A stretch of 64,000 bases of DNA from a virus. Positions 26,889 to 49,127 of the stretch are shown here, one piece after another; positions within the stretch are counted from its first letter, which is position 1; each line of letters starts with the position of its first letter. Under the pieces are notes generated by a model that was not told the origin of the DNA, searched no databases, and saw only the letters and a list, made by a program, of their open reading frames with translations. Both the position numbers and the translations under genes were made by a program. The stretch is taken from positions 32,001 to 96,000 of the IMG/VR virus record IMGVR_UViG_3300027759_000002. The stretch is one strand, 5' to 3'.

Positions 26889-27368
26889 ATGTCAAACACA
26901 GCAATACAGTTAAAAAAATCAGGCGTAACAGGAAACACACCATCAGGTCTTGCATTTGGTGAGGTCGCTCTTAACTACGCCGATGGAAAACTGTTTTATA
27001 AAAACAGTCTTGGTGGAACTTCATACATCTCCAACCAATTTTCGTTTGACACAATCAACTCAAACAGCTCCCTAATATTTGCGGGAAGTGGTTCGGACAC
27101 CTTGTCTTTCATTGCTGGTAATAATGTTACCATCAGCACAAATACAACCACAAAAACAATCACAATCAATGCATCGGTATCAGGTGGAAATGACCCTGGT
27201 CCTGCGTTTGACCGTGCCAACGCTGCATATGCAGCACAAAATACAACTGCATCGTTTGCTAATGCGGCGTTCACTCATGCTAATGCAGCTTATACCAAAG
27301 CTAATACAGGAACAACAGCACTAGACACTAACTCAGACATTGTTGCTTTCACTATCGCCTTTAGTTGA
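26889..27368 (+). CDS. Mtd-N-like short fibre protein
   Basis: AIQLKKS..PSGLAFGEVALNYADGKLFYK, short AN stalk, hydrophobic C-terminus VAFTIAFS. Confidence 0.65.
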   Translation: MSNTAIQLKKSGVTGNTPSGLAFGEVALNYADGKLFYKNSLGGTSYISNQFSFDTINSNSSLIFAGSGSDTLSFIAGNNVTISTNTTTKTITINASVSGGNDPGPAFDRANAAYAAQNTTASFANAAFTHANAAYTKANTGTTALDTNSDIVAFTIAFS

Positions 27369-27370
27369 TG

Positions 27371-27378
27371 AATAAATA
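27371..27378 (+). promoter_or_regulatory. T4-type late promoter (AATAAATA)
   Basis: Intergenic consensus match upstream of 27397. Confidence 0.5.
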
Positions 27379-27396
27379 AAGGATAAGGAAATTTAA

Positions 27397-27723
27397 ATGG
27401 CAAATACTTTTAAAAATCAACTACAAGCAGCAGTCGGAACATCACCTACAGCAATCTATACAGCTGGTGCCAATGTATCAACGACAGTCATTGGCATGAC
27501 TATAGCAAACATACTAAACACATCAATAACCGCAAACGTCATTTTAACTTCTGGTGGGTCGGACTATTATATGGTTAAGATGGCACCAATTGATCCAGGT
27601 AATTCTTTAATTACTATTGGTGGTGAACAAAAATTAGTAATGAGAGCCAATGATATACTAAAAGTCTCAACAAGTAATGCTTCAGCAGCTGATGTTATTG
27701 TGAGTCTATTGGAAATAACATAA
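27397..27723 (+). CDS. small beta-sandwich adaptor-like protein (MANTFKN class)
   Basis: 108 aa. IYT..TTVIGMTIAN..DV.VS.LEIT pattern shared with four other ~110-aa paralogues in this window. Confidence 0.65.
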   Translation: MANTFKNQLQAAVGTSPTAIYTAGANVSTTVIGMTIANILNTSITANVILTSGGSDYYMVKMAPIDPGNSLITIGGEQKLVMRANDILKVSTSNASAADVIVSLLEIT

Positions 27724-27724
27724 C

Positions 27725-30700
27725 ATGGAATTTACTTACATTGGCAATCAAGATAAGAAGGATGTAAGGTTAGCTGGTTCATTTGCTAATGGTGCATTTG
27801 TAACTGCTAACTCAGCAGCCTCTTTTGCCAATGCGGCTTTTGCTAGGGCCAACGCAGCCTATGCACAAGCAAATACTGGTGGAAACTTTACTGCATCACC
27901 AGTATCAGTTTATTCCGATGCGTTCACCGCTAATGGTGCAACATCAACATTTAATTTAAGTACAACACCATCAAGTGAAAACTATATAATTGCGGTAGTC
28001 GATGGTATTACTCAATTAAGAAGTACATATACTGTTACAGGTAATGTAGTTTACTTTGATACCACATTTGAAAATGGTGCCAATGTTGAGATAACAACTA
28101 TCACTGGCGGTGGTGCCGTAGATCCATATGCATCAAACACTGCCAATGCAGCGTATGCAACTGCTAATGCGGCCTTTTTGCAGGCCAACAATAGTTCCAC
28201 CGATACATGGGTAAGAACACAAGCTAACACGGCATACGATAAGGCCAACTCGGCAGCTTCGTTTGCCAATGGTTCTTTTGTAGTTGCCAACTCAACATCT
28301 ATATTTGCTAATGCATCTTTCGATAGAGCCAATGCTGCTTATGCACAGGCAAATAATTCTACTGATACGTGGGTAAGAAGTCAGGCTAATAATGCATTTG
28401 ATACGGCTAATTCATCAGCATCGTTTGCCAATGCGTCCTTTGTAACCGCTAATGCATCATATCTTTCACAAAACACTACTGCAATCTTTTCTAATGCAGC
28501 CTTTGACCGTGCTAATGCGGCCTACGCACAGGCTAATAATTCAACAGATACTTGGGTAAGAGGTCAGGCTAATAATTCATACGATAAAGCCAATAGTGCT
28601 GGCAGTTTTGCTAATGGTGCATTTGTAACTGCTAACTCAGCAGCAAGTTTTGCTAACGGAGCATTCACAACATCCAATACAGCTGATAGTAAAGCAACAA
28701 GTGCTGGTTCATTTGCTAATGGTGCATTTGATAGAGCAAACTCCAGTTATACTACGGCAAATTCAGGTTCTAGTTTTGCTAATTCATCTTTTGTAACAGC
28801 CAATGCGGCAGCATCATTTGCTAATGGTGCATTTACACAAGCCAATACCGGTGTAACAATATCTAGTTTGGCTTTTAACCATGCTAATGCAGCCTATGCA
28901 CAAGCAAATACATCTGGTGGTGCGGACACTTTTGCGAGAGCACAAGCAAATGCGGCTTTTAGTACAGCCAATTTAGCATACAGTACAATTATTACAGCCA
29001 GTAATACAGCGGCATTGTATTATATCACCAGAAATTTTATTGGTGATGGTAACACAAACAACTTTTCAATTTCATCCAATACATCTGCGAATAGTATTCT
29101 TGTTTTTGATAATGGTATTACACAGAATCCAATAACGGACTATAGTGTAACAGGAAACACAATCATCTTTGTGGATACTCCAGCAAATGGAACAATAATT
29201 CAAGTACGTGAATTATTAAGTAATGTTCCTGTTGTTACTGATAATTCCAATTCAGCATTTAACAGAGCCAATTCATCATATTCAACGGCCAATGCAGCCT
29301 TTAATGCAGCCAATAACTCTACTGATACTTGGGTAAGAGGTCAGGCTAATAATGCATTTGCTGCAGCCAATTCATCCGGTAATTTTGCAAATGCATCTTT
29401 CATAACCTCCAATTCAGCCGCTGTATTTGCTAATGGTGCCTTCGATAAGGCAAATGCAGCCTTTAATGCGGCCAATAATTCCACCGATACTTGGGTCAGA
29501 ACACAAGCAAACACAGCATACACGGCAGCTAACTCAGCGGCCAGTTTTGCTAACGGTGCTTTTGTACAGGCAAACAATGCAGGTTCATTTGCTAATGGTG
29601 CTTTTGTTGGCGCCAATGCAGCTGCTTCATTCGCTAATGGTGCATTTGACCGTGCGAATTCTAGTTACGGAGTTGCAAATACTGGTTCTAGTTTTGCCAA
29701 TGGTGCATTTGTTGTTGCCAACTCAGCAGCCAGTTTTGCAAATGCATCCTTTATAGTTGCAAACTCAGCAGCATCATTTGCTAATGGTGCTTTTGTAACT
29801 GCTAATGCTTCTTACACATCACAAAATATAACTGCTGGATTTGCTAATGCATCTTATACAACAGCAAATGCAGTTTATGTATCTCAAAATATAACGGCCG
29901 GATTGGCCAATGCATCTTTTGTAACAGCTAATGCATCCTATACAGCACAAAATACTACTGCATCATTTGCTAATGGTGCTTTTGTAACTGCTAATGCATC
30001 ATATGTTGCACAGAATATCACGGCAGGTTTTGCTAATGCTGCATTTGTAACAGCTAATGCTTCTTATGCATCTCAGAATACTACAGCATCATTCGCTAAC
30101 GGTGCCTTCATAACTGCTAATGCATCTTACACATCACAAAACACCACGGCATCATTTGCTAACAGTGCCTTTGTAACTGCTAACGCAGCCTTTAATGCAG
30201 CCAACACCGGCAGTGCAGATGCATATGCAAGAAGTACAGCCAATGCAGCTTTCGTTACCGCAAACTTAGCATACAGTACAATTATTACAGCCAGTAATAC
30301 AGCTTCAGTTTATTATATAACCAGAAATTTTACTGGTGATGGTAACACGAATACATTTTCAATTTCATCTAACACAACTGCAAATAGTATACTTGTTTTT
30401 GATAATGGTATTACACAAAATCCACTAACAGATTATAGTGTAACAGGAAATACTATTACTTTTGTGGATACTCCAGCAAATGGAACAATAATTCAAGTAC
30501 GTGAATTATTAAGTAATGTTCCTGTTGTTACAGACAACTCCAATTCTGCTTTTGTTAGAGCAAACTCCGCATATGCAACAGCAAATGCTGCCTTCTTACA
30601 AGCCAATAATTCTACTGATAGTTGGGTAAGAACTCAAGCTAATAATGCATATGATAAGGCCAATAGTGCTGGCAGTTTTGCTAATGGTGCCTTCATAACT

Positions 30701-31978
30701 GCTAATGCTGCCTTTAATGCGGCCAATAACTCAACAGATACTTGGGTAAGAACACAAGCAAACGCAGCATACAATGCAGCCAATTCTGGTGCATCATTTG
30801 CTAATGGTGCCTTCATAACAGCCAATGCAGCATATGCTTGGGGCAATCATGCTTCTGCTGGATATGCAACAACAACTTATGTTGGTAATGCAATTGCAAA
30901 TCTTGTAAACTCTGCGCCAACAACGTTAGATACATTAAATGAATTGGCAACTGCGTTAGGTAACGATGCCAACTTTAGCACAACAATTGCAACATCAATA
31001 GGTGTAACCAACTCATTTGCAAACGGTGCATTTCTAAGAGCCAATGCGTCTTATATTGCACAAAATACCACAGCAACATTTGCTAATGCAGCTTTTATAA
31101 CTGCTAATGCATCATATACAGCACAAAATACAACTGCTGGATTTGCTAACGCATCTTACATAACAGCCAATTCTGGTGCATTATTTGCTAACAGTGCCTT
31201 TGTAACCGCTAATGCTTCTTATGCCTCTCAGAATACCACAGCATCATTTGCTAATGGTGCTTTCGATAAAGCAAACTCAGCTGCATCATTCGCTAACGGT
31301 GCCTTTGTAACTGCTAACGCAGCCTTCAATGCAGCTAACAATGCAACGGATCCGTGGGTTAGAAATCAAGCCAACAACGCATACAATACAGCTAACGCAG
31401 CTTTCATAGCAGCCAATACTGCCGGTGGTGCAGACACTTGGGCAAGAGCGCAAGCAAATGCGGCTTACAATAAAGCAAACACCAGTTCTACTGCAACATT
31501 AACAGGTTTTGTTGATGTGTTTACTGGCGATGGTTCAAATTCAGCATTCACTTTGTCAACAACACCAGACAGTGAAAACATAATCTTTGTTTCTGTACAA
31601 GGTGTGATGCAACCTAAAACTTCTTATAGTTTATCAGGAAACATTTTAACATTTGATTCTGTTCCACCAAACACAGCATACATTGAAGTCACAACATTAT
31701 CAGGTACAAATATAAGTTCTAGTAGTTTAATATATAGAACATATACAGGCAACAATACTGCAACAAACTTTACAGTAACCTCTGGTGTAAATGTAAACAA
31801 TTTACTTGTTGCAGAAAACGGTATTTTACAGAGACCAACTACAGACTACACAGTATCTGGTGCAAACGTAGTATTTGCAACTGCGCCTGCCACTGGTGTT
31901 GATATTCAAGTGCGTGAATTAGCAGTTACAGTATCTTCAGCTGAAACATTAAGCCCATTTTTATTAATGGGTGGATAA
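27725..31978 (+). CDS. very long AN-heptad coiled-coil fibre with five 59-aa knob domains
   Basis: Dozens of ANSAASFANGAF units, five F(T/I)G.G...G..Q...Y.V.G..I.F knob domains, APTTLDTLNELATALGNDANF fibre motif. Ends SPFLLMGG. Confidence 0.8.
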   Translation: MEFTYIGNQDKKDVRLAGSFANGAFVTANSAASFANAAFARANAAYAQANTGGNFTASPVSVYSDAFTANGATSTFNLSTTPSSENYIIAVVDGITQLRSTYTVTGNVVYFDTTFENGANVEITTITGGGAVDPYASNTANAAYATANAAFLQANNSSTDTWVRTQANTAYDKANSAASFANGSFVVANSTSIFANASFDRANAAYAQANNSTDTWVRSQANNAFDTANSSASFANASFVTANASYLSQNTTAIFSNAAFDRANAAYAQANNSTDTWVRGQANNSYDKANSAGSFANGAFVTANSAASFANGAFTTSNTADSKATSAGSFANGAFDRANSSYTTANSGSSFANSSFVTANAAASFANGAFTQANTGVTISSLAFNHANAAYAQANTSGGADTFARAQANAAFSTANLAYSTIITASNTAALYYITRNFIGDGNTNNFSISSNTSANSILVFDNGITQNPITDYSVTGNTIIFVDTPANGTIIQVRELLSNVPVVTDNSNSAFNRANSSYSTANAAFNAANNSTDTWVRGQANNAFAAANSSGNFANASFITSNSAAVFANGAFDKANAAFNAANNSTDTWVRTQANTAYTAANSAASFANGAFVQANNAGSFANGAFVGANAAASFANGAFDRANSSYGVANTGSSFANGAFVVANSAASFANASFIVANSAASFANGAFVTANASYTSQNITAGFANASYTTANAVYVSQNITAGLANASFVTANASYTAQNTTASFANGAFVTANASYVAQNITAGFANAAFVTANASYASQNTTASFANGAFITANASYTSQNTTASFANSAFVTANAAFNAANTGSADAYARSTANAAFVTANLAYSTIITASNTASVYYITRNFTGDGNTNTFSISSNTTANSILVFDNGITQNPLTDYSVTGNTITFVDTPANGTIIQVRELLSNVPVVTDNSNSAFVRANSAYATANAAFLQANNSTDSWVRTQANNAYDKANSAGSFANGAFITANAAFNAANNSTDTWVRTQANAAYNAANSGASFANGAFITANAAYAWGNHASAGYATTTYVGNAIANLVNSAPTTLDTLNELATALGNDANFSTTIATSIGVTNSFANGAFLRANASYIAQNTTATFANAAFITANASYTAQNTTAGFANASYITANSGALFANSAFVTANASYASQNTTASFANGAFDKANSAASFANGAFVTANAAFNAANNATDPWVRNQANNAYNTANAAFIAANTAGGADTWARAQANAAYNKANTSSTATLTGFVDVFTGDGSNSAFTLSTTPDSENIIFVSVQGVMQPKTSYSLSGNILTFDSVPPNTAYIEVTTLSGTNISSSSLIYRTYTGNNTATNFTVTSGVNVNNLLVAENGILQRPTTDYTVSGANVVFATAPATGVDIQVRELAVTVSSAETLSPFLLMGG

Positions 31979-31987
31979 GGAAAGAAC

Positions 31988-32317
31988 ATGGCAATCACAT
32001 ACAAAGTTTTAGGACAATCAAACCCGCTGGCAACAACAGCAACAACACTTTATACGGTGCCAGCAGCAACAAGTGCAATAGCTTCAACTATTACTATTTG
32101 TAATCAATCGGCTAGTAATGATTTTTATAGAATTGCAATACGACCAGCAGGTGCAACATTGGATCCAAAACACTATATTGCATACAATGGTGCTATTCCA
32201 TCTTACGATAGTATCAGTTTAACAATTGGTATCACACTAGCTAGTACTGATATAGTTACAGTATATGCAGGTACTGCAAATCTAAGTTTCAACTTGTTTG
32301 GTTCGGAGATTAGTTAA
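31988..32317 (+). CDS. small adaptor-like protein (KVLGQSNP class)
   Basis: 109 aa. YKVLGQSNP..TTLYTVPA..YRIAIRP.G..HYIAY..FNLFGSEIS. Paralogue of 35074 and 47842. Confidence 0.7.
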   Translation: MAITYKVLGQSNPLATTATTLYTVPAATSAIASTITICNQSASNDFYRIAIRPAGATLDPKHYIAYNGAIPSYDSISLTIGITLASTDIVTVYAGTANLSFNLFGSEIS

Positions 32318-33282
32318 TGGTGGTAAAAACGCACAGCACAGAAAAACTTAGTGCTAAGGTTTTTAATAGCACAAGTATATCTAATCCATCAATACCAACA
32401 GCAAACGCAATTGAATATCTTGTCGTTGCTGGTGGTGGTGGCGGTGGTGCTTGGCTTGGTGGTGGCGGTGGTGCTGGTGGTTTTAAAACTGCAGCTGGTT
32501 TTGCAGTATCTCCTGGTGTATCATTAACAGTAACAATTGGTGCAGGTGGTGCTGGTGCAGCTGCATCAACAAACCTTGCAGGTGCGAACGGCACAAATTC
32601 ATCATTCTCAACAATTACATCTTTAGGCGGTGGTTATGGAGGATCGGGCATTGCAGGTAAAGGCGCATCAGGTGGTTCTGGCGGTGGAGGTTCTGATTCA
32701 GGAAGTGCTAGCGTAGCATCAGGTGGTGGTGCGGGCACCGCAGGACAAGGCAACAACGGTGGCGGTGGACTTGATGGATCAGGCGGCGCAGGCGGAGGTG
32801 GCGGTGGTGCTGGCGCTGCAGGTTCTAATGCTATAGCAGCATCTTTCCCTTCTGGTGGAAACGGCGGAGCTGGATTATCTTCATCAATAACCGGAACATC
32901 ATTGTATTATGCAGGCGGTGGTGGTGGCGGTTGTTATAATACTGGTGTAAAAGGTGGTGACGGCGGCGCAGGCGGTGGCGGTGGCGGTAGTACGTGGTCA
33001 GGCACAACTGCCGGCACTGGCGGTAGTAATGGTGGCGGCAACGGTAATGTAGGTGCTGTTGCAGGCGCAGGTGGTATTAATTCTGGCGGTGGCGGCGGAG
33101 GTTCTAATGGTACTGCAGGATATACTTCAAGTGGTGCAGGTACAGGTGGTTCAGGCATAGTTGTTATTCGTTATGCAGTTGATTATAAAGCAGCAACAGC
33201 AATTACCGGTTCACCAACAGTTACAGTTGCCGATGGTTACAGAGTTTATAAATGGACCAGTTCAGGTTCTATTACATTCTAA
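32317..33282 (+). CDS. glycine-rich domain protein (putative adhesin)
   Basis: EYLVVAGGGGGG..GGGGAGG..GGSGIVVIRY with many GGxG runs. Confidence 0.7.
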   Translation: MVVKTHSTEKLSAKVFNSTSISNPSIPTANAIEYLVVAGGGGGGAWLGGGGGAGGFKTAAGFAVSPGVSLTVTIGAGGAGAAASTNLAGANGTNSSFSTITSLGGGYGGSGIAGKGASGGSGGGGSDSGSASVASGGGAGTAGQGNNGGGGLDGSGGAGGGGGGAGAAGSNAIAASFPSGGNGGAGLSSSITGTSLYYAGGGGGGCYNTGVKGGDGGAGGGGGGSTWSGTTAGTGGSNGGGNGNVGAVAGAGGINSGGGGGGSNGTAGYTSSGAGTGGSGIVVIRYAVDYKAATAITGSPTVTVADGYRVYKWTSSGSITF

Positions 33283-33291
33283 GAAAATAAT

Positions 33292-34527: not shown

Positions 34528-34538
34528 AGGATTAAAAA

Positions 34539-34778
34539 ATGGCAACAAAAATCAACAGAAGAAACATAGACAACCAAACATTAATTGATTTAGGATATAC
34601 AAGTTCAGACACATTTACTCAGGTTAAATTTCCTTTGGGTGATTACGGTTCAGTAGCACAAGAAATTTTTGGTGGATTAGGTCTAGAACAGTATGGTAGA
34701 ATTTGGGATAATAAAACAACAATATCAGTTTTTTATCCAGATAGTTTAATCCCACTCGATGCGGGTTATTTAACATAA
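34539..34778 (+). CDS. small hypothetical linker protein
   Basis: 79 aa. MATKINRRNI start. Ends LDAGYLT. Confidence 0.55.
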   Translation: MATKINRRNIDNQTLIDLGYTSSDTFTQVKFPLGDYGSVAQEIFGGLGLEQYGRIWDNKTTISVFYPDSLIPLDAGYLT

Positions 34779-34800: not shown

Positions 34801-35070
34801 ATGGCTACACAACTACAATTTAGGCGAGGAACTACTGCACAGACCATAATCTTTACCGGAGCAACCGGAGAAGTTACTGTTGACACAACTAAAGGTGTGG
34901 TAGTCGTGCATGATGGTACAACTGTAGGTGGTACACCATCAGTCACCGAAGCATTTGCAAGGTCTTCCGCAAATACAGCAAATTCTTCATACGCAACCGC
35001 TAATGTTGCATTAGTAAACGCTAATGTTGCATTAACATATACAAACACTTTTTTATTAATGGGAGCTTAA
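34801..35070 (+). CDS. major tropism determinant N-terminal (Mtd-N)-like domain protein
   Basis: QLQFRRGTTAQ..FTGATGEVTVDT.K..VVVHDG.T.GG is the Mtd_N motif. Ends TFLLMGA. Confidence 0.75.
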   Translation: MATQLQFRRGTTAQTIIFTGATGEVTVDTTKGVVVVHDGTTVGGTPSVTEAFARSSANTANSSYATANVALVNANVALTYTNTFLLMGA

Positions 35071-35073
35071 CAA

Positions 35074-35403
35074 ATGCCATCGGTCTTAAAAATTTTAGGT
35101 CAATCTAATCCAGCACCAAATACTGCAACAACTCTTTACACAGTGCCAGCAGCAAACAGCACAGTAATTTCTACAATTTCAATTGCAAATTTGTCAGCAA
35201 ATACCACAGGTTTTAGAATTGCTTGTCGTCCAGCTGGTGCATCATTGGCCAATTCACAATACATTTCATACGACACAGTTTTAGGTGCAAGTGATACTGT
35301 TGCTTTGACATTAGGTTTAACACTAGCAGCAACTGATGTTCTTACTGTTTATGCTAACACAGGCAACGTTACCTTTAGTGCGTTTGGTTCGGAGAATTAC
35401 TAA
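35074..35403 (+). CDS. small adaptor-like protein (KILGQSNP class)
   Basis: 109 aa. Paralogue of 31988 and 47842. Confidence 0.7.
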   Translation: MPSVLKILGQSNPAPNTATTLYTVPAANSTVISTISIANLSANTTGFRIACRPAGASLANSQYISYDTVLGASDTVALTLGLTLAATDVLTVYANTGNVTFSAFGSENY

Positions 35404-36296
35404 TGGCAATTAAAAAATCTTCCTTAAGTGGATTAGCTTTTAATAGGACTATATCTTACCAGCAACCAGTCGCTTCAGCTGGCGGTGGTGGCGGTGCTGT
35501 CACAGTTGGACCTACGGCCACAGGTGGTACAGTTACTACATTTATAGATGCAAATAATGCAACTTACAAAGTACATACATTCACATCAAGTGGTTCATTT
35601 GTAGTAAGTTCTTTAGGTGCATCCAATAATAGTATTGAATTGTTAGTTGTGGGTGCTGGTAGTGGTGGCCATACGAGTACAACCGGTGGTGCTGGTGGCC
35701 AAGTAAAATATTATGGTGCAGAAAATTCAAATCTTTTTACTAGAGATATAGCTGTTGAGGGTTCAGCACTAGCAACTTTAGCAGCAGCAACATACACAGT
35801 AACAATTGGTGGTGGCCAAGCAGCTGGGACTGTTGGTACTGCAACATCATCTTCTTTTATCGGAACAGGCATAAGTGTAACATCGACTGGTGGATCAAAT
35901 CCACAAAGCGGACAAACCAGTTGGATATATTCTATCAGTGGCAATGGTTTCCAAACAGGTACATCAGGTAGCAATTATTATTCACACGGTGGTTCTGGTG
36001 CAGCAGGCCGAGGAAGTCCCCTTGGTGGTGATGTAGGTGGTGGAGGTGGACCTCCACAATATTTTATGATAAAAGGAAACACAGTTACATTTGTTGGTGG
36101 CGGCGGCGGTATTGGAATTAATAGTGGATATGGACAAAACTATGAAAGATACAGAGGAATTGGTGGCCAAGGTGCCGGTAGAGCAGATGAAACTGGTGTA
36201 GCTAACATGGGTGGCGGTGGCGGCGCAGGCTGGAATGGCAGCGGTGCAAAAGCTGGTGGTTCAGGTATTGTAATTGTTAAATATAGAATTTCTTAA
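35403..36296 (+). CDS. glycine-rich domain protein (putative adhesin)
   Basis: YKVHTFTSSGSF..ELLVVGAG..GGSGIVIVKY. Confidence 0.7.
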   Translation: MAIKKSSLSGLAFNRTISYQQPVASAGGGGGAVTVGPTATGGTVTTFIDANNATYKVHTFTSSGSFVVSSLGASNNSIELLVVGAGSGGHTSTTGGAGGQVKYYGAENSNLFTRDIAVEGSALATLAAATYTVTIGGGQAAGTVGTATSSSFIGTGISVTSTGGSNPQSGQTSWIYSISGNGFQTGTSGSNYYSHGGSGAAGRGSPLGGDVGGGGGPPQYFMIKGNTVTFVGGGGGIGINSGYGQNYERYRGIGGQGAGRADETGVANMGGGGGAGWNGSGAKAGGSGIVIVKYRIS

Positions 36297-37100: not shown

Positions 37101-38033
37101 ATGTCACTATTAAAAATAAAACCATTTATTATAGATGATACAACTGCAAGTGATGCATTTGTACGGGCTAATGCAGCCTTTGGCCAAGCAAACACGGCAG
37201 CTGCATTTGCAAATGGTTCCTTTGATAGAGCTAATGCGGCATTCAATACAGCCAATAATGCAACCGACAGCTGGGTTAGAACACAGGCCAACAACGCATT
37301 TAATTCAGCCAACTCCGGTGCAACATTTGCTAATGCATCATTTACAACCGCAAACTCCGGTGCAACATTTGCTAACGGTGCTTTCTTAAGAGCAAATTCA
37401 AGTTACGAACAATCAAACAATGCAGCCTCATTTGCTAATGGTGCCTTTGCTTCTGTTAATTCTAGTGCCTCATTTGCGAACAGTTCTTTCATAACAGCCA
37501 ATGCAGCTGCATCGTTTGCTAACGGTGCTTTCGATAGGGCTAATTCCAGTTATGGAGTTGCAAACACAGGTTCTTCTTTTGCAAATGGTGCTTTCTTACA
37601 AGCAAACAATGCAGGTTCATTTGCTAACGGTGCTTTTGTAACTGCAAATGCTGCGGCCAGTTTTGCTAATGGTGCTTTTGATAGGGCTAATGCTGCCTAT
37701 GCTCAGGCAAATACAGGTTCCACAGATACATGGGTGAGAAACCAAGCCAACAATGCATACAGTACTGCTAATGCAGCCTTCTTAAAAGCAAATACTGGTG
37801 GAGCAGGCATCACCTATACTGCATCAAACACTGCACCAACAAGTCCGAAAGTGGGAGACCAATGGTACATAATTGCAACAGACATTCTTTATGAATATAT
37901 AAACGATGGCACAAGTAACAATTGGGTAGATATAGTATCACCAACATTTTCAAACACAACTACTGCATCTTCAACAACAAGTTCCACAAATAATGCCAGG
38001 GTTGTTGGGTATTCATTAGTATTCGGAGGATAA
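37101..38033 (+). CDS. AN-heptad fibre protein
   Basis: AN repeats, then APTSPKVGDQWY..LYEYINDG..WVD domain. Ends YSLVFGG. Confidence 0.7.
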   Translation: MSLLKIKPFIIDDTTASDAFVRANAAFGQANTAAAFANGSFDRANAAFNTANNATDSWVRTQANNAFNSANSGATFANASFTTANSGATFANGAFLRANSSYEQSNNAASFANGAFASVNSSASFANSSFITANAAASFANGAFDRANSSYGVANTGSSFANGAFLQANNAGSFANGAFVTANAAASFANGAFDRANAAYAQANTGSTDTWVRNQANNAYSTANAAFLKANTGGAGITYTASNTAPTSPKVGDQWYIIATDILYEYINDGTSNNWVDIVSPTFSNTTTASSTTSSTNNARVVGYSLVFGG

Positions 38034-38034: not shown

Positions 38035-38391
38035 ATGGCCGCACCAAATTTAATCAGTGCAAATACAATAACAGGCAAGACTGCCACAGCAAACTGTACA
38101 ACCGTATCATCAAATGTTATTACTGTTTCAGCTAATACAGTTGTAAAATTAAATTCAATAATTTTTACAAACTATAATAACTCAGATGTGGTTTCTGCTA
38201 ATGCAATAATCAATCGTAGTGGCACAACATATTTCTTAGGTGCAAAAGTTAACGTACCTCCAAATTCAACATTAGTTTTATTAGGTAAAGATAGTCCAAT
38301 TTATTTGGAAGAAAATGATGTGTTGCAAACTGTTGTGAGCGCAAACTCAGCAATACACATGTCAGCGGGTTATGAATTAATTACTATCTAA
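38035..38391 (+). CDS. small adaptor-like protein (MAAPN class)
   Basis: 118 aa. MAAPNLISANTITGKT..VPPNSTLVLLGK..IYLEE.D.L. Confidence 0.65.
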   Translation: MAAPNLISANTITGKTATANCTTVSSNVITVSANTVVKLNSIIFTNYNNSDVVSANAIINRSGTTYFLGAKVNVPPNSTLVLLGKDSPIYLEENDVLQTVVSANSAIHMSAGYELITI

Positions 38392-38392
38392 A

Positions 38393-39346
38393 ATGAGAAC
38401 AAGAAGTAATTTTGGTATCATAGGTACAACACAAACAATATTAGGTAGTTCTAGTGGTGGTGTATACTCTGCTGATGACCAAAGAATAGCTAAAGCTGCA
38501 GGCAATTGGCCTGCGCCAAGAATCAACATACAAGCACTTATTGTTGCAGGTGGTGGAGGTGGTGGAGGTTCCGTTAATTATTCGGGAGGCGGCGGTGCTG
38601 GTGGATTACTGTATGGTACCATAATAGTTTCAGCTGGAGCATATACTGTTACAGTTGGTGCTGGCGGAGGCACAAATGCAAGCGGTTCAAACAGTTTAAT
38701 TACATGTCCATCATCAGTTTCTTTTGTTGCATCTGATGGATCAATTGTCGGCACATCAATTACTGCAATAGGTGGTGGTCGTGGTGGTTATTATGCCACT
38801 TACAGTGGTCTTGGTGGCGATGGTGGTTCTGGTGGTGGCGGTGGTCATGGGTCAAATGCAGGTGGCGCAGGTACTGTTGGTCCTCCTAGACAAGGATATG
38901 GTGGCGGTACAGGATTCAACGCAGCATCTGCAAGTGCTGGTGCAGGTGGTGGTGCAGGTGGTGCTGGTGCATCAGGTACAGTAAATAGTAATGGCGCAGC
39001 TGGCGGTGTTGGATTATCTTTTAATATATCAGGAACATCAACCTATTATGCAGGCGGTGGTGGTGGCGGTGTAGAAAATATTAGCGCTTACGCAGGTGGT
39101 GCAGGTGGTCTTGGTGGTGGCGGACGTGGCGCTGGTAACAATGGCGGTCAACAAAATGGCACAGTTAATACAGGCGGTGGTGCCGGTGGCGGTGGTAGTG
39201 CCACTACAGGTGGTTCTGGTATTGTAATCATACGGTTTGCAGATTCTAATCCGGCAGTTACAGCAACATCAGGTTCACCAACATACACAGTAGCAGGTGG
39301 TTATAGAGTTTATGTATTTAATGCTTCAGGCTCCATTACGTTCTAA
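38393..39346 (+). CDS. glycine-rich domain protein (putative adhesin)
   Basis: MRTRSNFGIIG start, ALIVAGGGGGG..GGSGIVIIRF..GYRVYVFNASGSITF. Confidence 0.7.
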   Translation: MRTRSNFGIIGTTQTILGSSSGGVYSADDQRIAKAAGNWPAPRINIQALIVAGGGGGGGSVNYSGGGGAGGLLYGTIIVSAGAYTVTVGAGGGTNASGSNSLITCPSSVSFVASDGSIVGTSITAIGGGRGGYYATYSGLGGDGGSGGGGGHGSNAGGAGTVGPPRQGYGGGTGFNAASASAGAGGGAGGAGASGTVNSNGAAGGVGLSFNISGTSTYYAGGGGGGVENISAYAGGAGGLGGGGRGAGNNGGQQNGTVNTGGGAGGGGSATTGGSGIVIIRFADSNPAVTATSGSPTYTVAGGYRVYVFNASGSITF

Positions 39347-40266: not shown

Positions 40267-40276
40267 ATATAAGACT

Positions 40277-40591
40277 ATGACAAATTACTATTTCAAACAA
40301 ATTTTTTCAATTTATTCGGGTTATGTCTATGAATTTACAGGTAATGTTCCTGATGGTGAATCACCTTTATCATATATTACCGAACAATTTGTGGCCGAAC
40401 ACGGTAACGGACAAATTCAAACTGCTGTTACTCAAGTACCAGCTGGTACATATTACTTTCATAGTTTTGAAAATTTAGAGTCTGTAAAATTTATTCAGGT
40501 CGCAGATTTAAGCTATCAAGAACCAATAATTCCTGATCCAGTACCTGATGCAAATACAGAAGTACAATCAGTATCACAAGGAGACCAGTAA
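40277..40591 (+). CDS. small acidic protein (cassette A gene 2)
   Basis: Start moved to ATG 40277, after the upstream stop. Acidic Pro-rich tail like 49794. Confidence 0.6.
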   Translation: MTNYYFKQIFSIYSGYVYEFTGNVPDGESPLSYITEQFVAEHGNGQIQTAVTQVPAGTYYFHSFENLESVKFIQVADLSYQEPIIPDPVPDANTEVQSVSQGDQ

Positions 40592-41793: not shown

Positions 41794-41798
41794 AAAAT

Positions 41799-43106: not shown

Positions 43107-43148
43107 CAGGAGTTTTTTTGAAAACTCATGTGGTTGATTAAAAAATAA

Positions 43149-46100
43149 ATGGCAAATGTATTAGCGACTTATGGATTTCCAGATAGTTACGAGTTAATCG
43201 TAGCTGGTTCAGCATCGGTAAAATATGTAAGTGCTTCGGGTAGTGACAGTAATAACGGCAATACGGTAAGCACACCGTACTTGACCATTGCAGCGGCATT
43301 AAGTGCAACAAGCGGTACAGCAACATCAGTAACCATTGTCATTCTTGCTGGCACATATAATATATCAGCAACCGCATTAGCTAATGGTTATGGCGCAGCA
43401 TGTATAAGTGACGGTGGGAATCCTAGAATATTTGTTTGTTCTGCCGGTCAAGTAATCATAAACTGTACTGATGCAACCGCAGTACGAGATTTTGCGCCAC
43501 TCAATTTTGTAAATTCTAGTTCGGCCATTTATGGCGCCATATTAAAGCGCAACAACAGTGGACGAACAACCAGTTATACAGTATCAGTTTTAAATGATGA
43601 GTCTGTAAACTTCAGAGGTTCGGCATATAATACAATATTCCAAGAAGTAAATTCCAACAATGCTTGGTCAGTACAATATGATAACGGTGGTAATCCAACA
43701 GGTAAAGTATATAACTCTACGTTCTATAATGGAGCAAATGCCGCTGCTGATTATTCTGGCGGTGCAGGTTTAGTAATAACCGACACAGTATTCAATACGA
43801 CAACATCAAGTTCTGCAACATTTACTGGTTGTTTGACCAGCCAAACAGTTAATGCAACAACTTATGTAACAACAGGCGTAACAACTAAGGGTGTTTATTC
43901 TGGTACATACGCATGGAATGGTACCACCACACCATTGGTCAATGGATTTTTAAATCCAGCAAACACAGTTTTTAGTGGAACAACTATCAATTTCACTTTG
44001 TATGATAGTAATTCAGCAAATGTATCTTATACAATAACTGGCGTAACAACAGCAGATTTAAACGGCACTTCTTTAACAGGTTACTTTACTTCAGCATCAG
44101 GTGCTTTCACACTTAGTGTACCAACAAAAGTCAAAGTTGCTGAAACAAAAACACTATCAATCACAACAGGAACATATTCAGCAAATGTTGTAATCACTCC
44201 GGGACTTAGTTTTGAAGCACTAATTGTAGCTGGCGGTGGTAGTGGTGGTAACCACAATACTACTAATGCGAACGGCGGCGGCGGCGCTGGTGGTGTTCTT
44301 AGAGGATCCATTTCAACGGCCGGCGGTGTTTTTGCTGTGGCTGTTGGCGCAGGCGGTGCAGCAATTGCTAATGCTACTGCTCTCAATGGAGTTAAAGGTA
44401 CTGATTCTGGTCTAGGTAGTTATGTTGCAGAAGGTGGTGGCGGTGGTGGTAGTTCAGGTGTAGGTTTTTCATCGTCAAGTCAGAACGGTGGTTCAGGCGG
44501 CGGTAATGCTTACTATCAATCTGGTGGCGGCCTAGCGAACAATAACCTTACAGCAGGAACATTAACTGTACTAGGTAATAACGGCGGATCAACATCAACA
44601 ACTTGGACTGGCGCAGGCGGTGGTGGTGCTGGAGCAGTCGGTCAAGCCGGAACAGGATCAAGTCCTGGTGGCAATGGCGGCATTGGTATTACTAATGATT
44701 GGACAGGAACCACTCGTTATCTGGCTGGCGGCGGTGGCGGTGGCGGTAACAGTAGTGAACGAGCAGGTGATGGATTTTATGGTGGCGGCCGAGGTTCTGG
44801 TACAACCACATATTACAGTTATAATGTCTATACCAATGAAATAAATGCTACTACTAAAGGTAGCGGAATACCAACTGCTGTAGTCAATACAGGTGGCGGC
44901 GGAGGCGGCGGATCTTATTGGGCATCTAACGGCGGATGGTCTACTGGTTCTGGAGCAGGTGGTTCTGGTATAGTAATTATACAGTATGCAGGAAGTCAAA
45001 AAGCGACAGGCGGTACTGTCACAACAGTTGGATCAAATACAGTTCATACATTCACTACTAGTGGAACATTTACAGTTCTTGGTGGTGGTTTATCAGCAAG
45101 CGCAAACACTTTATATTGGGGTGATAGTTTAACACTTACATATTCTGATGACTTAGCTGATGGAAGTAATGCTGCATACACAATATCCGGAGTAAGTAGT
45201 TCACAAATTAATAATGCATCACTTACTGGCAATTTTACTTTTGCTAACAGTACATCACAATTAATTATACAAACGACACCAACAACTGCTACAGCAAACA
45301 CATTAACTATTACTGTTGGTTCTTACACACTAAACATACCTATAACATTTTTAATATCTTTTACAGGACCAATTGGTGGATACTGGGGTGCAAATTTAAC
45401 ATACACAGCTGCGACAAGAGGTCTAAGTAATAACACATTGATTCCTTATGCCATCACAGGTAGTAATGTTACTAGTTCACAGTTAAATAGTTTGCCTTTG
45501 ACTGGAACAATTACGAATATTGTTTCCGCACTACCATTGGGTAGTAATTATTTTGATGGTACTACCGATTATCTAAGTGTTACCAACGGTTCTGGTTTTC
45601 AGTTTGGCACAGGTGATTTTACTATTGAATGTTGGATTAAAACTACAGACCAAGCATTTGATATTATTAGTCAGCATGCATCAGGTGGAACTAATTGGAA
45701 TTGGTTGATTATCAATGGTAATATATATTGGCAATATTCAAATGCTGGTGCTAATCTATTTTCTATTGCACTCAGTTCTTTGACTTCAAATCCAACTAAT
45801 GGTTCTTGGACACATATTGCTGTTACTAGAACATCTGGCACAATGAAATTTTGGATTAATGGAACAGGTCAATCTACAACTGCTGCAGATAGTACTAATT
45901 ATGCTGGTGCAGCTGCATTGGTTAGAATAGGTGGTTCTCAATATGCTGATTTTCAAGGAAACATTTCTAATTTAAGAGTCGTTAAAGGTCTTGCAGTTTA
46001 TACATCAAACTTTACTCCTTCTGTAACACCATTATTTGCAACACAAAGTTCTGGAACAGGTATCGCTGCAATCACAGGTACACAAACAAGTTTATTAACA

Positions 46101-46727
46101 TGTAAGAGTCAAACTACTCTTACTGATTATAGTACAAATGCATTTGTTGTTACAGGTAACGGAAACGTTGCGGCCAATACAGAATATCCAGGAACATTTA
46201 CTTCCGCTGGGCCAACTACAAACTTAGGAACAGGCACACTAATAATTACCACAAACACCTCGGCTCCTTTGTTATCTTCAGCCAATGGATTTGTTACTGT
46301 TGGCGCAAACACAATAGCTATTACAGTTAGAACTTCAACTGCTGTTGTTACGAATAGTTTTTCAACAACAGTAGATTCTTTTACACCAATTAACACCATC
46401 ACAACAGATATACATTCACAGAATGTTGAAGCAATATTAAGTTCCAATGGATCAGTGGCATTGACAGTGTTGGATGGAAATACTACTCAAAATACATTAA
46501 CGTTTATTAATACCATTACAACAGATATACATTCACAAAATGTTGAAGGTATTGTAACTGTTAGCACAAATTCATTTAATTCGGTAGTAACTTCTAACAC
46601 AATAGATCCATCAATATCAACGATTGTTCCTCTACCAACATACGCATACAGTTCAGGTACGGAACTATCAGCAAACGGAAATGCAATAGCCGCAACACCT
46701 ACTGTCACTCAAACCTGGTACATCTAA
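43149..46727 (+). CDS. large multidomain adhesin-like protein (beta-helix/pectin-lyase-like start, Gly-rich domain, ConA/LamG domain)
   Basis: KYVSASGSDSNNG..PYLTIAAAL (DUF1565-like), ALIVAGGG..GGSGIVIIQY, FGTGDFTIECWIK..WTHIAVTR..FQGNISNLRVVKG. Confidence 0.75.
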   Translation: MANVLATYGFPDSYELIVAGSASVKYVSASGSDSNNGNTVSTPYLTIAAALSATSGTATSVTIVILAGTYNISATALANGYGAACISDGGNPRIFVCSAGQVIINCTDATAVRDFAPLNFVNSSSAIYGAILKRNNSGRTTSYTVSVLNDESVNFRGSAYNTIFQEVNSNNAWSVQYDNGGNPTGKVYNSTFYNGANAAADYSGGAGLVITDTVFNTTTSSSATFTGCLTSQTVNATTYVTTGVTTKGVYSGTYAWNGTTTPLVNGFLNPANTVFSGTTINFTLYDSNSANVSYTITGVTTADLNGTSLTGYFTSASGAFTLSVPTKVKVAETKTLSITTGTYSANVVITPGLSFEALIVAGGGSGGNHNTTNANGGGGAGGVLRGSISTAGGVFAVAVGAGGAAIANATALNGVKGTDSGLGSYVAEGGGGGGSSGVGFSSSSQNGGSGGGNAYYQSGGGLANNNLTAGTLTVLGNNGGSTSTTWTGAGGGGAGAVGQAGTGSSPGGNGGIGITNDWTGTTRYLAGGGGGGGNSSERAGDGFYGGGRGSGTTTYYSYNVYTNEINATTKGSGIPTAVVNTGGGGGGGSYWASNGGWSTGSGAGGSGIVIIQYAGSQKATGGTVTTVGSNTVHTFTTSGTFTVLGGGLSASANTLYWGDSLTLTYSDDLADGSNAAYTISGVSSSQINNASLTGNFTFANSTSQLIIQTTPTTATANTLTITVGSYTLNIPITFLISFTGPIGGYWGANLTYTAATRGLSNNTLIPYAITGSNVTSSQLNSLPLTGTITNIVSALPLGSNYFDGTTDYLSVTNGSGFQFGTGDFTIECWIKTTDQAFDIISQHASGGTNWNWLIINGNIYWQYSNAGANLFSIALSSLTSNPTNGSWTHIAVTRTSGTMKFWINGTGQSTTAADSTNYAGAAALVRIGGSQYADFQGNISNLRVVKGLAVYTSNFTPSVTPLFATQSSGTGIAAITGTQTSLLTCKSQTTLTDYSTNAFVVTGNGNVAANTEYPGTFTSAGPTTNLGTGTLIITTNTSAPLLSSANGFVTVGANTIAITVRTSTAVVTNSFSTTVDSFTPINTITTDIHSQNVEAILSSNGSVALTVLDGNTTQNTLTFINTITTDIHSQNVEGIVTVSTNSFNSVVTSNTIDPSISTIVPLPTYAYSSGTELSANGNAIAATPTVTQTWYI

Positions 46728-46748
46728 AATTTTCAACAAAAAAAGTGA

Positions 46749-46756
46749 AATAAATA
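46749..46756 (+). promoter_or_regulatory. T4-type late promoter (AATAAATA)
   Basis: Intergenic consensus match upstream of 46777. Confidence 0.55.
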
Positions 46757-46776
46757 GAATGAAAAGGTTATAAAGA

Positions 46777-47832
46777 ATGTCAACTCAAGTCCCACCGTCA
46801 AGATTAGATTCAACCAAAGACTTTTCATCTTTGGTTCCTTCTGCGTTCGCTCGTGCTAATGCTGCGTTCGCACAAGCAAATAATTCTACTGACACTTGGG
46901 TAAGAGGTCAGGCTAATAACGCATACAATACAGCTAATGCTGCATTTCTGCAAGCGAACAATTCTACCGATTCATGGGTAAGAACACAAGCTAATAATTC
47001 TTTTAATAAAGCAAACTCAGCCGCAGAGTTTGCTAATGCATCCTTTTTGGTTGCCAACTCGGCATATGCTTGGGGCAACCACGCTACAGTTGGTTATGCA
47101 ACAACAACTTATGTTGGTACAGCTGTTGCCAATCTAGTAAATTCAGCACCAAGCACATTAGATACATTAAATGAATTGGCAACCGCATTAGGTAATGATG
47201 CCAATTTTAGTGCCACGATTACTAACATGGTTGGCACAGCAAACTCTTTTGCTAATGGTGCTTTCACACAAGCAAACTCAGCAGCATCATTTGCTAACGG
47301 TGCATTTGGTGTTGCTAATACATCAGCTAGTTTTGCCAATGGTGCTTTCCTACAAGCTAATGCTGTATTCAGCCAATCAAATACGTATGTTTGGCCAACA
47401 GCCAACTCAGCCGCAAGTTTTGCTAATAGTGCCTTTGCTCGTGCAAATGCGGCTTATGCTCAAGCCAATACGGGTTCTACCGATACATGGGTTAGAACTC
47501 AGGCTAACAATGCGTACACACAGGCCAATGCGGCTCTCATTCAAGCAAACTCATCACAATTATCAGCAAACGTAGATTCATTTATCGGTAATGGTTCAAA
47601 CACAACATTCTTATTAACTGTAACACCAGCAGATAAGAAATTTACCATGTTAGTTGTTGATGGTGTTGCACAACCAAAGAGTGCTTACACAATATCTGGT
47701 ACAACACTTGCATTATCTTCAGCGGCACCTAACAATGCCATTGTAGAAATAACAACATTTGGTGGTAATGCATCCGCACCAACTCAAACATTACCTGACA
47801 TTTTAAGTCCCTTCTTATTTTTAGGGATATAA
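46777..47832 (+). CDS. AN-heptad fibre protein with one knob domain
   Basis: AN repeats, APSTLDTLNELATALGNDANF, 59-aa knob. Ends SPFLFLGI. Confidence 0.72.
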   Translation: MSTQVPPSRLDSTKDFSSLVPSAFARANAAFAQANNSTDTWVRGQANNAYNTANAAFLQANNSTDSWVRTQANNSFNKANSAAEFANASFLVANSAYAWGNHATVGYATTTYVGTAVANLVNSAPSTLDTLNELATALGNDANFSATITNMVGTANSFANGAFTQANSAASFANGAFGVANTSASFANGAFLQANAVFSQSNTYVWPTANSAASFANSAFARANAAYAQANTGSTDTWVRTQANNAYTQANAALIQANSSQLSANVDSFIGNGSNTTFLLTVTPADKKFTMLVVDGVAQPKSAYTISGTTLALSSAAPNNAIVEITTFGGNASAPTQTLPDILSPFLFLGI

Positions 47833-47841
47833 GGAAAAAAT

Positions 47842-48171
47842 ATGGCAGCTTTATATAAAATTTTAGGTCAAGCAAATCCAGCAGCAACAACAGCAACGAC
47901 TGTATATACTGTGCCTGCTTTAACAAATACAGTATGTTCCACAATCTCAGTCTGTAATACTGGTGCAACATCCGCAACTTTCAGAATTGCCTTTAGACCA
48001 ACAGGTGAATCTTTGGCACTAAAACATTATATCAATTATGATACAACTGTGGCAGGCAACGATTCAATGTACATTTCATTAGGTGTCACTCTAGCAACAA
48101 CCGATGTTGTTACTGTGTATGCAAGTAATGCCAATTTATGTTTCTCTATGTTTGGTACGGAGATTGTTTAA
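47842..48171 (+). CDS. small adaptor-like protein (KILGQANP class)
   Basis: 109 aa. Paralogue of 31988 and 35074. Confidence 0.7.
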   Translation: MAALYKILGQANPAATTATTVYTVPALTNTVCSTISVCNTGATSATFRIAFRPTGESLALKHYINYDTTVAGNDSMYISLGVTLATTDVVTVYASNANLCFSMFGTEIV

Positions 48172-49127
48172 TGGGTATTAAGAGTGCCAGTCAACTGTCT
48201 GTTAGTAAGGGAAGATTCTTCTCATCAACCACCAGTGGTGGTTCGACTTCAGCAGCATTGGCAACAAGTACTGGTGGAACAATCTATTTGGGTAATAGAG
48301 TAGTACCAGTATCAAACACATACGTTGAAAACGGATACAGATATCATTTATATAAATCAAACGGAACATTTACCGCATCAGGAACAGGCACAGTTGATAT
48401 ACTACTAGTAGGTGGTGGCGGTGGCGGTGGCCAAGGCGGTGGCGGTAGCGGAGCAAATGTAATTATATTAACTGGTGTTACAGTAACAGCACAAACTTAT
48501 ACTGTAACAGTTGGTTCCGGTGGTGTTGCTGGTCGTAATGGTGGTTATGGTAGTACCAATCCAACAGCAGGCACACCTTCTTCTGTTACAGGTATTGCCG
48601 GTGCTACTGCAAATGGTGGTGCATCCGGCGATAACGCTAGTTATGCTGGTAATGGTTTTCCGGCCGGATCCGGAGCAGGCGCAAGCACCACATCACCAAT
48701 AGGTCCATCTTCAAACGTTTATGTTGCATATGGTATATCAGCAGGTTATAGTTCACCTGGATCAAGTGGTGCAACAGGCCAAAATGGTGCATCAGACAAT
48801 GGTTTTTTAAGTTCCATCTCACAAAATTTTCCCGCAGTTGGTGAAAGATTGGGAACAAATACATATTTTGGAGCAGGCGGTGGAGGAGGTTGTAGTCAAG
48901 GAAACAACAATACTAACAGAGGTTACATAGGATGGGGTGGATTAGGTAAGGGTGGTGGATCAAAATATGGTGGTTATGGTGGTACTGATGTAGTAACCAC
49001 AGCAGGACAAAGTGGTGCCGATAATACCGGATCGGGTGGATCAGGTGGTACGGTAATTGATAGTAACCAATATCCTGGCGGTGGTTCTGGTGGTTCTGGT
49101 GTTGTAGTCATAAGGTATGCCATTTAA
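48171..49127 (+). CDS. glycine-rich domain protein (putative adhesin)
   Basis: Start at ATG 48171 (TAATG overlap). GYRYHLYKSNGTF..ILLVGGGG..GGSGVVVIRY. Confidence 0.7.
   Translation: MGIKSASQLSVSKGRFFSSTTSGGSTSAALATSTGGTIYLGNRVVPVSNTYVENGYRYHLYKSNGTFTASGTGTVDILLVGGGGGGGQGGGGSGANVIILTGVTVTAQTYTVTVGSGGVAGRNGGYGSTNPTAGTPSSVTGIAGATANGGASGDNASYAGNGFPAGSGAGASTTSPIGPSSNVYVAYGISAGYSSPGSSGATGQNGASDNGFLSSISQNFPAVGERLGTNTYFGAGGGGGCSQGNNNTNRGYIGWGGLGKGGGSKYGGYGGTDVVTTAGQSGADNTGSGGSGGTVIDSNQYPGGGSGGSGVVVIRYAI

Follow-up and report, generated by a model that had tools for sequence, protein, structure and literature searches.

Stalk-adaptor-partner triads in the window

The window analysed here, 64,000 nucleotides (nt) long, comprises bases 32001-96000 of a 179,754-bp virus with terminal repeats (IMG/VR record IMGVR_UViG_3300027759_000002) and contains five triads of adjacent genes, in each of which a protein of about 110 amino acids (aa), here called the adaptor, is encoded between two fibre genes. 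The upstream gene of each triad ends in a short hydrophobic peptide (the C-plug) and the downstream gene starts with a characteristic peptide (the N-plug), both of which follow the class of the adaptor between them (three adaptors of class 1, one of class 2 and one of class 3; Table 1). All open reading frames (ORFs) and terminal peptides listed in an earlier note on this DNA were recovered at their positions. The guanine-cytosine content of the window was 34-43%, and the triad region is bordered by genes for a baseplate wedge, a tail sheath stabiliser, the large terminase and the tail sheath, which identifies the virus as a T4-like myovirus; megablast of the region against phage genomes returned no close phage genome. 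The triads fall in the 'host recognition cluster' named for marine pelagi- and cyanomyophages (PMC7029224).

The upstream genes were recognised as fibre stalks by an Mtd_N domain (34801-35070) or by matches to tail-fibre PHROGs (the others). All three 109-aa class-1 adaptors contained the motif K[VI]LGQ[SA]NP and were 55-56% identical in pairwise comparison. Four of the downstream genes were glycine-rich (Gly-rich) and matched Gly_rich_2 (PF21722) with 61.1, 36.9, 64.5 and 62.6 bits, above the gathering cutoff (24.3 bits). The partner downstream of the class-3 joint was not an adhesin head but a 1417-aa shaft, and this shaft itself ended in a class-1 C-plug; carrying both a class-3 N-plug and a class-1 C-plug, it therefore links the first two triads in a daisy chain of three segments (26889 > class-3 adaptor > 27725 > class-1 adaptor a > 32317). 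The same chaining, a class-3 joint followed by a class-1 joint, was seen in loci L136-L143. The tip start at 32317 overlapped the adaptor stop by 1 nt (a TAATG junction). For the Gly-rich gene of the third class-1 triad the mechanical ORF begins at 48138, and the ATG at 48171 (1-nt overlap, TAATG) fits the other modules and related loci.

A profile search of the 180-kb genome yielded exactly five free-standing adaptors. Plug patterns in the genome were confined to ORFs directly upstream of adaptors; the strict class-1 pattern fails to catch the FLFLGI variant at 46777-47832, a form (FLF[LI]GI) that was also found in loci L007-L009.

Table 1. Genes of the five triads and class-1 junctions, in window coordinates
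Feature	Position	Strand	Evidence or remark
Proximal stalk, 159 aa, AN-x-AF repeats, class-3 C-plug ...VAFTIAFS	26889..27368	+	Plug pattern unique to this ORF in the genome
Class-3 adaptor, 108 aa, MANTFKN start	27397..27723	+	phrog_1276 E 3e-8; 131 IMG/VR relatives; homologues in HMO-2011, S-TIM5, HTVC010P, Rhizobium and Yersinia phages
Shaft, 1417 aa, class-3 N-plug MEFTYIGNQ, class-1 C-plug ...LSPFLLMGG	27725..31978	+	Middle link of the chain
Class-1 adaptor a, 109 aa, predicted eight-stranded jelly roll	31988..32317	+	AlphaFold2 model
Gly-rich distal protein, 321 aa, N-plug MVVKTHS then Gly_rich_2	32317..33282	+	PF21722 E 2e-16
Minimal stalk, 89 aa: Mtd_N attachment domain, short AN-repeat, class-1 plug ...TFLLMGA	34801..35070	+	PF18454 E 3e-13; phrog_9648 'tail protein'
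Class-1 adaptor b, 109 aa	35074..35403	+	Family profile, BLAST
Gly-rich distal protein, 297 aa, N-plug MAIKKSS	35403..36296	+	PF21722 E 5e-9
Stalk, 310 aa, AN-x-AF repeats, class-2 plug ...YSLVFGG	37101..38033	+	Tail-fibre PHROGs
Class-2 adaptor, 118 aa, MAAPNL start	38035..38391	+	BLAST E 5e-10 to class-3 adaptor
Gly-rich distal protein, 317 aa, N-plug MRTRSNFGIIG	38393..39346	+	PF21722 E 2e-17
Stalk, 351 aa, class-1 plug variant ...LSPFLFLGI	46777..47832	+	Tail-fibre PHROGs
Class-1 adaptor c, 109 aa	47842..48171	+	Family profile, BLAST
Gly-rich distal protein, 318 aa from ATG at 48171, N-plug MGIKSAS	48171..49127	+	PF21722 E 7e-17
Class-1 stalk/adaptor junctions	31970-31990, 35062-35076, 47824-47844		

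Class-specific flanking peptides across phage loci

Neighbouring ORFs were extracted from 165 IMG/VR loci with class-1, class-2 or class-3 adaptors, and 167 unique adaptors were counted. The peptide patterns were derived from the same data, and the on-diagonal rates are optimistic: in class 1, the upstream C-terminus [FLM][LMF][LTFM][MGI]G[AMGIL] (FLLMGA, LMTMGA, FLLGGM) was found in 66 of 78 cases and the downstream N-terminus M[ASTG][IVLF][SRKG] in 51 of 61; in class 3, A[FLMI][TAS]IA[LFM][GS] (for example, AFAIALG) in 43 of 52 and M.(F.)?[YH][IVL]G (for example, MAYIGN) in 34 of 36; and in class 2, ..[AS][IL][IV]FG[G..] in 11 of 13 and the loose pattern M.{5,9}G.I[GS] in 4 of 8. A fourth subclass, with a 100-aa adaptor, had a pair of its own (..[IL]MGA[YL] upstream, MG[LI]SVFP downstream). 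The informative part is the empty off-diagonals, with no cross-class flank among the 167 unique adaptors, together with the specificity against background: plug-ending ORFs of at least 60 aa lay directly upstream of an adaptor in 72 of 78 (class 1), 69 of 69 (class 3) and 13 of 14 (class 2) cases. The triad gene order, with the adaptor between two fibre genes, was met in more than 150 loci, and the association with the flanks was kept down to about 33% adaptor identity.

When 85 class-1 adaptors were placed on a tree, the plug variants beside them (MGA, GGM, TMGA and LGI) were intermixed (20 changes over 78 labelled tips), and near-identical adaptors adjoined different plug variants and different tip proteins. 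Since the variants mix within class 1, there is no demonstrable insulation between the three class-1 modules of the window. Judged from their sequences, the adaptors look orthogonal between classes only, with no visible sub-specificity inside class 1.

The claim of the earlier note that adaptor class predicts both flanking peptides thus carried over to other genomes, and for class 2 it did so in the C-terminal motif, the N-terminal one being weak. The orthogonality that it proposed was found between classes and not within class 1, so that its formulation of 'any head to any stalk' was too strong. Nor was the downstream partner always Gly-rich or an adhesin head: the class-3 partner in the window was a shaft, tips across the loci were glycine-rich, RCC1 or TIG proteins, and the glycine content of downstream partners ranged from 5 to 40%.

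Conservation of the plugs on unrelated proteins

The upstream proteins were 39-1417 aa long and included collagen-like GXY repeats, coiled coils, SGKYLTTDG-type beta repeats and Mtd_N mini-stalks. In class 1, they belonged to at least 12 unrelated BLAST families, and the downstream proteins to at least 24. Similarity among upstream proteins stopped abruptly about 8-10 residues from the C-terminus, and the plugs are not accounted for by shared ancestry of whole genes. Conserved plug residues were encoded by synonymous codons (5-6 codons for Leu, TTT or TTC for Phe, four codons for Ala), and this variation shows that selection acts on the peptide and not on the DNA.

In each class-1 module of the window, and in 37 of 63 non-redundant class-1 junctions overall, the adaptor continued the reading frame of the stalk, and the gap between the two was often just 3 or 9 nt. 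Read-through from the stalk into the adaptor is nevertheless unlikely because the stalk stop codon was TAA (58 of the 63 junctions).

The adaptor family and its predicted fold

The three adaptor classes form one homologous family, in that the class-3 profile matched all five window adaptors (E <= 5e-5) and the class-2 and class-3 adaptors matched each other in BLAST (E 5e-10). Scanning of all adaptor classes gave no match to a Pfam or NCBIfam model. Class-1 and class-3 adaptors matched the first ~100 positions of phrog_1276 ('unknown'; E 5e-10 to 2e-6) and class-1 adaptors also phrog_693 ('tail fiber protein'; E 6e-8 to 6e-4), the PHROG matches covering the N-terminal part of longer fibre proteins; the class-2 adaptor had no match in the PHROGs scan. 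Homologues of the class-1 adaptors made up at least 7,989 clusters at 90% identity among the 8,000 candidates scored, and the class-1 profile alone retrieved 3,945 clusters at 50% identity (E <= 1e-3); the mean column identity of class-1 adaptors was 76%. One GenBank record labels an adaptor homologue as a 'c1q globular head like domain' protein. About ten class-1 homologues are named 'glucose-6-phosphate dehydrogenase assembly protein OpcA' by JGI; in the setting of phage fibres, this name is almost certainly a wrong annotation that has spread between records. Among the longer representatives (P0217-P0230 and others; P0121, P0122 and P0128), tandem double adaptors of 213-240 aa with two full domains were common, and there were also variants with an insertion of ~145 or ~240 residues after the first ~30 residues.

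AlphaFold2 (AF2) modelled class-1 adaptor a as a compact eight-stranded jelly roll with a predicted local distance difference test score (pLDDT) of 87.7, or 92-96 with a deeper alignment. The nearest solved folds were HDT1 (nucleoplasmin-like), the HFTV1 turret, YomS/XepA, the KHP40 cement protein and the Ena subunits of spore appendages (Z 9.5-8.4, root-mean-square deviation 2.5-2.8 Å over 92-102 residues, identity 5-14%), and the TNF/C1q heads (APRIL, CD40L, C1qA) reached a Z of about 7 only; these values fall in the range that the tool itself calls common among unrelated folds, and kinship is unproven by them alone. Such likeness allows no functional inference past 'small oligomerising beta-sandwich'. 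The same fold was found in BFVD and the ESM Atlas in many phage proteins of ~100-120 aa of unknown function. Sequence searches of the PDB with the adaptor profile and with a Gly-rich tip gave no match.

Adaptor fusions

Longer relatives of the adaptor carried the adaptor domain N-terminal to Gly_rich_2, RCC1-repeat or TIG-containing proteins. True adaptor-Gly_rich_2 fusions, uninterrupted under translation table 11, were L178:2386-3474, L178:3490-4626 and L180:3001-4188. In these, the adaptor ended ...FGSE[IV]T and was followed, after ~8-10 residues, by [IV](E/D)YLVVAGGGGG at the start of the glycine-rich domain; the ~30-residue N-plug segment carried by the window tips was missing, and the gene upstream ended ...LNTFLLMGA. 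The lack of the N-plug is what the joint model set out below predicts, because a covalent link replaces it.

Two further candidates, P0140 and P0146 (L173:3001-4830 and L174:705-1889), which appeared as stalk-adaptor or adaptor-tip fusions that had kept a plug, were rejected as gene-calling artefacts of reading TAG as glutamine; under table 11, an internal TAG stop falls precisely on the gene boundary in each. The junction of P0129 and P0134 was the same as in these artefacts. At L178:899-6474 and L180:2503-7188, one collagen-like stalk (...TFLLMGA) was followed by two or three adaptor-bearing tips, comprising adaptor-Gly-rich fusions and a free adaptor with a very large Gly-rich/LamG protein; this arrangement hints that one stalk may carry alternative or mixed tips. 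Some database proteins had the adaptor domain at the C-terminal end.

Cultured phages and virion proteomes

Triads or adaptor homologues were present in cultured podo-, sipho- and myoviruses, that is, in all three tail types. The stalk, adaptor and next protein were, respectively, gp43 (..AVAMAIAL), gp42 and gp41 (MPYIGQK) in SAR116 podovirus HMO-2011; ..IIALSIALG, 127 aa and MPHIGNH in cyanomyovirus S-TIM5; ..AIAMAIALG, 110 aa and the tail fibre MSYIGAE in the T4-like Rhizobium phage RHph_Y65; and ..LSMAIALG, 104 aa and the tail fibre MSYLGRPP in Yersinia phages vB_Yru_GN1 and YerA41. The stalks and adaptors of Pelagibacter podovirus HTVC010P (..PTALAIALG; 122 aa) and Pontimonas siphovirus phiPsal1 (..NALMLMGG; gp021) had no obvious adjacent partner. 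A separately annotated tail-fibre assembly protein (Tfa) was encoded directly downstream of the fibre in vB_Yru_GN1 and, as g044, in the same gene cluster as the triad in YerA41, and the adaptor is therefore not the sole chaperone candidate in these phages.

In cyanophage S-SCSM1, a long tail fibre with an Mtd_N-like N-terminus and the C-terminus ..VTPFILALGGN (ORF26) was followed after 3 nt by a 112-aa adaptor homologue (ORF27; E 1.3e-11 with the pan-class profile, 5.5e-15 with the class-3 profile) and then by a 711-aa tail fibre (ORF28), and all three bear the mark 'virion protein' in the record. Mass spectrometry of CsCl-purified S-SCSM1 particles identified 45 proteins (PMC9602691). We infer that the label of ORF27 derives from these data because its best BLAST match is a mere 'hypothetical protein'. 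In YerA41, liquid chromatography-tandem mass spectrometry detected 63 particle proteins, g042-g044 among them (PMC7354516). Missing from these 63 were the plug-bearing g040 and the adaptor homologue g041 (104 aa), whose sequence offers 5 tryptic peptides in the usable size range. Virion membership of the adaptors, implicit in the idea of a joint, is thus backed by S-SCSM1 and not by YerA41, and the evidence is mixed but net positive.

Proposed role of the adaptor

It is reasonably likely that the ~110-aa adaptor is a structural joint piece of segmented tail fibres, analogous and not homologous to T4 gp35/gp36. Such a jelly-roll piece would cap the end of the trimeric stalk, where it would hold the stalk's short hydrophobic C-plug, and would also hold the first ~10-30 residues (the N-plug) of the next protein, either another shaft or a receptor-binding tip. 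It would probably be present in one copy per fibre chain, hence as a trimer, and translational coupling, with the adaptor stop overlapping the tip start, would favour equimolar synthesis; docking of the peptides on the adaptor and a 3:3:3 stoichiometry are what we infer from this arrangement. At least three or four adaptor classes with plugs of their own would allow several fibres and segment chains per virion without cross-class mis-joining, and recombination could swap stalks or tips provided that the few terminal residues were kept. By analogy with C1q, the adaptor may in addition supply C-terminal registration or nucleate trimerisation for collagen-like and coiled-coil stalks. In an AF2 model of a tethered monomer (the C-terminal 40 residues of the stalk, Gly in place of the TAA stop, a 3-codon spacer and class-1 adaptor a; 33 naturally paired rows), the adaptor had a pLDDT of 92-96 and the plug and linker 51-54, with no strand and no docking; given a tether of 4 residues and a single chain, this model speaks neither for nor against docking.

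The adaptor could instead be an assembly factor that reads the C-plug, transiently nucleates or registers stalk trimerisation in the manner of a C1q- or foldon-like cap, and then departs; in a variant, it would catalyse a direct plug-to-plug joint and leave, being absent or substoichiometric in the virion. Together, these two forms seem rather unlikely. They would suit YerA41, in whose particles the downstream fibre and Tfa were detected and the adaptor homologue was not, and they agree with the many stalks that are collagen-like or coiled-coil right up to the plug, with no trimerisation domain of their own, and with small proteins beside fibre genes often being chaperones (for example, Pam3 gp25). 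However, the S-SCSM1 homologue is marked as a virion protein, as are both its neighbours; fusions without an N-plug preclude a plug-to-plug joint, and in them the adaptor domain must travel with the tip; the adaptors had no chaperone match in Pfam, PHROGs or NCBIfam, the PHROG matches being tail-fibre N-termini; and the Yersinia phages have their separately annotated Tfa near the triad. It is because of the S-SCSM1 proteome and the N-plug-less fusions that a lasting joint is favoured over a transient factor. That the jelly roll is only a distal head of the stalk with a gene of its own, perhaps a receptor-binding one, and that the gene downstream encodes an independent fibre whose N-terminus is conserved through translational coupling or for use at another attachment site, appears improbable. 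The missing partners of phiPsal1 and HTVC010P, the database proteins that end in an adaptor domain and the resemblance to TNF/C1q-type fibre heads (Z about 7) would agree with such a knob, but the N-plugs are class-specific and conserved as amino acids with synonymous variation, the adaptor domains of fusions are N-terminal to tips, the downstream protein of daisy chains itself ends in another plug, and the adaptors are well conserved (76% in class 1), unlike hypervariable receptor-binding heads. A last explanation, that shared termini were merely inherited with duplicated cassettes through paralogy or hitch-hiking of flanks, and that no functional code exists, is very improbable and largely refuted. 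The class-1 triads of the window are indeed three whole-module paralogues and there are only three or four deep classes; conservation, however, ends abruptly ~8-10 residues from the end of otherwise unrelated proteins, survives to ~33% adaptor identity and coexists with variable synonymous sites, and plug patterns hardly occur except beside an adaptor.

Several observations weigh against the joint-piece reading itself. No finer co-variation of plug and adaptor was seen within class 1, where the variants are intermixed on the adaptor tree, and covariation at class level rests on only three or four deep adaptor clades, and therefore on few independent events. As motifs, the N-plugs are loose in class 1 and were found in only half of the cases in class 2. 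The Gly at position -2 of the class-1 plug, which is invariant, was encoded by GGA in 51 of 63 junctions. This codon lies 5-10 nt ahead of the adaptor and may in part act as its Shine-Dalgarno sequence (ribosome-binding site). To these are added the two cultured phages without an obvious partner next to the adaptor, and the absence of g041 and g040 from the YerA41 particle proteins.

On the joint-piece reading, it is possible, and we suggest it tentatively, that the triads represent a widespread peptide-addressed code for fibre assembly, in which a few orthogonal jelly-roll classes would each read a C-terminal tag of 6-10 residues and an N-terminal tag.

Other genes in the triad region

A second repeated module was located at 39379-46727 and 49146-55219. 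It starts with an AN-x-AF fibre with a ~110-aa C-terminal beta domain (39379-40266 and 49146-49790) and continues with a small acidic protein (about 40277-40591 and 49794-50078) and then with 400-435-aa proteins of no known family. The C-terminal domains of the two fibres were alike (BLAST E 5e-14). Homology of these domains to the adaptors, hinted at by BLAST against a small database, was not supported by hhalign, in which the C-terminal ~115 aa of the two proteins matched the adaptors with probabilities of 3% and 0.3%, respectively.

The 126-aa product of 36306-36686 matched phrog_7759 (E 5e-35). It recurs in other loci, either behind a Gly-rich tip or ahead of an adaptor (the upstream ORF of L012; L173:5700-6026), and may be a chaperone or an accessory protein of the fibre. 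The first Gly-rich tip gene is followed by 33292-34527, whose 411-aa product combines Ig-like domains (TIG and He_PIG) with a 'choice-of-anchor Z' PGGG repeat (NF058597, E 6e-12) and is probably another surface-binding fibre component.

Implications for phage host recognition

No part of a phage genome is harder to predict than host recognition, especially in the dominant marine phages of SAR11, SAR116, roseobacters and cyanobacteria, and the adaptor family is labelled there just as 'hypothetical' or 'virion structural protein'. If the adaptor is a joint piece, terminal tags could be used to piece together the multi-gene fibres of metagenomic phages on paper, the sharp mosaic boundaries in fibre genes would gain a mechanistic explanation, and the short tags with the small adaptor would be a compact natural toolkit to study the mounting of tips on stalks in phage-host pairs kept in the laboratory. 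If the code holds as well, the pairing of tips with stalks and the order of the parts could be read from the sequence for thousands of phages of water and soil that are not in culture, and recombination outside the tags would be enough to give rise to new fibres. A very large family (thousands of clusters), the adaptors merit a curated model.

Comparison with known systems

Segmented fibres with connectors and swappable receptor-binding modules are already well known. No curated family or paper describing this adaptor family, its class-specific tags or its breadth over tail types and habitats was found in the literature and libraries searched, in agreement with the earlier statement that the triads match no characterised system.

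In phage T4, gp35 and gp36 are the joint proteins of the long tail fibre, forming the hinge between gp34 and gp37, and connect the C-terminus of the proximal trimeric segment to the N-terminus of the distal segment. The likeness lies in small or medium proteins encoded between fibre-segment genes, in what would be a multi-gene segmented fibre and in the T4-like genome. Scans of all adaptor classes against Pfam, PHROGs and NCBIfam gave no indication of homology to gp35/gp36, and unlike these, the adaptor is a predicted jelly roll of ~110 aa, occurs in several classes per genome and also in podo- and siphoviruses, with recognition seemingly via peptides of 6-10 residues. In the branching adaptors of K1-5/SP6 and the N-terminal tailspike modules of CBA120/G7C, larger N-terminal domains of the spikes or a dedicated tail adaptor are used. 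As the triads would be, these are conserved docking modules by which different receptor-binding proteins are mounted on one virion and can be swapped by recombination, a comparison that draws in part on the discussion in the phiRIO-1 paper; they differ from the triads, which have a free ~110-aa protein flanked by terminal peptides.

The solved proteins of similar fold (HDT1, the HFTV1 turret, YomS/XepA, KHP40, Ena and TNF/C1q) share the eight-stranded beta-sandwich topology with the adaptor model, and all act as oligomers; the trimeric TNF/C1q heads, which stand at the end of a stalk, have a ten-stranded jelly roll, unlike the eight-stranded model. No match of the adaptors to the Tfa, Caudo_TAP, DUF4376 or Pam3 gp25-like chaperone families was obtained in the Pfam, PHROG and NCBIfam scans.

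The tail fibre gp24 of Pam3 combines a helical shaft, a TNF-like domain, out of which glycine-rich loops grow, and a glycine-rich domain in one chain, and its chaperone gp25, a beta-sandwich plus helix, is encoded downstream (PMC9608196). The triads would follow the same order of shaft, beta-sandwich and glycine-rich receptor-binding tip. Here, unlike in Pam3, the jelly roll is a separate gene (or an N-terminal fusion), which would also join partners that are not glycine-rich, and it is encoded upstream of the tip, unlike gp25. The Gly_rich_2 tips resemble the Pam3 gp24 tip and gp38 adhesins in composition and, like the S16/T2-type gp38 adhesin, would be separate proteins mounted on the end of a fibre.

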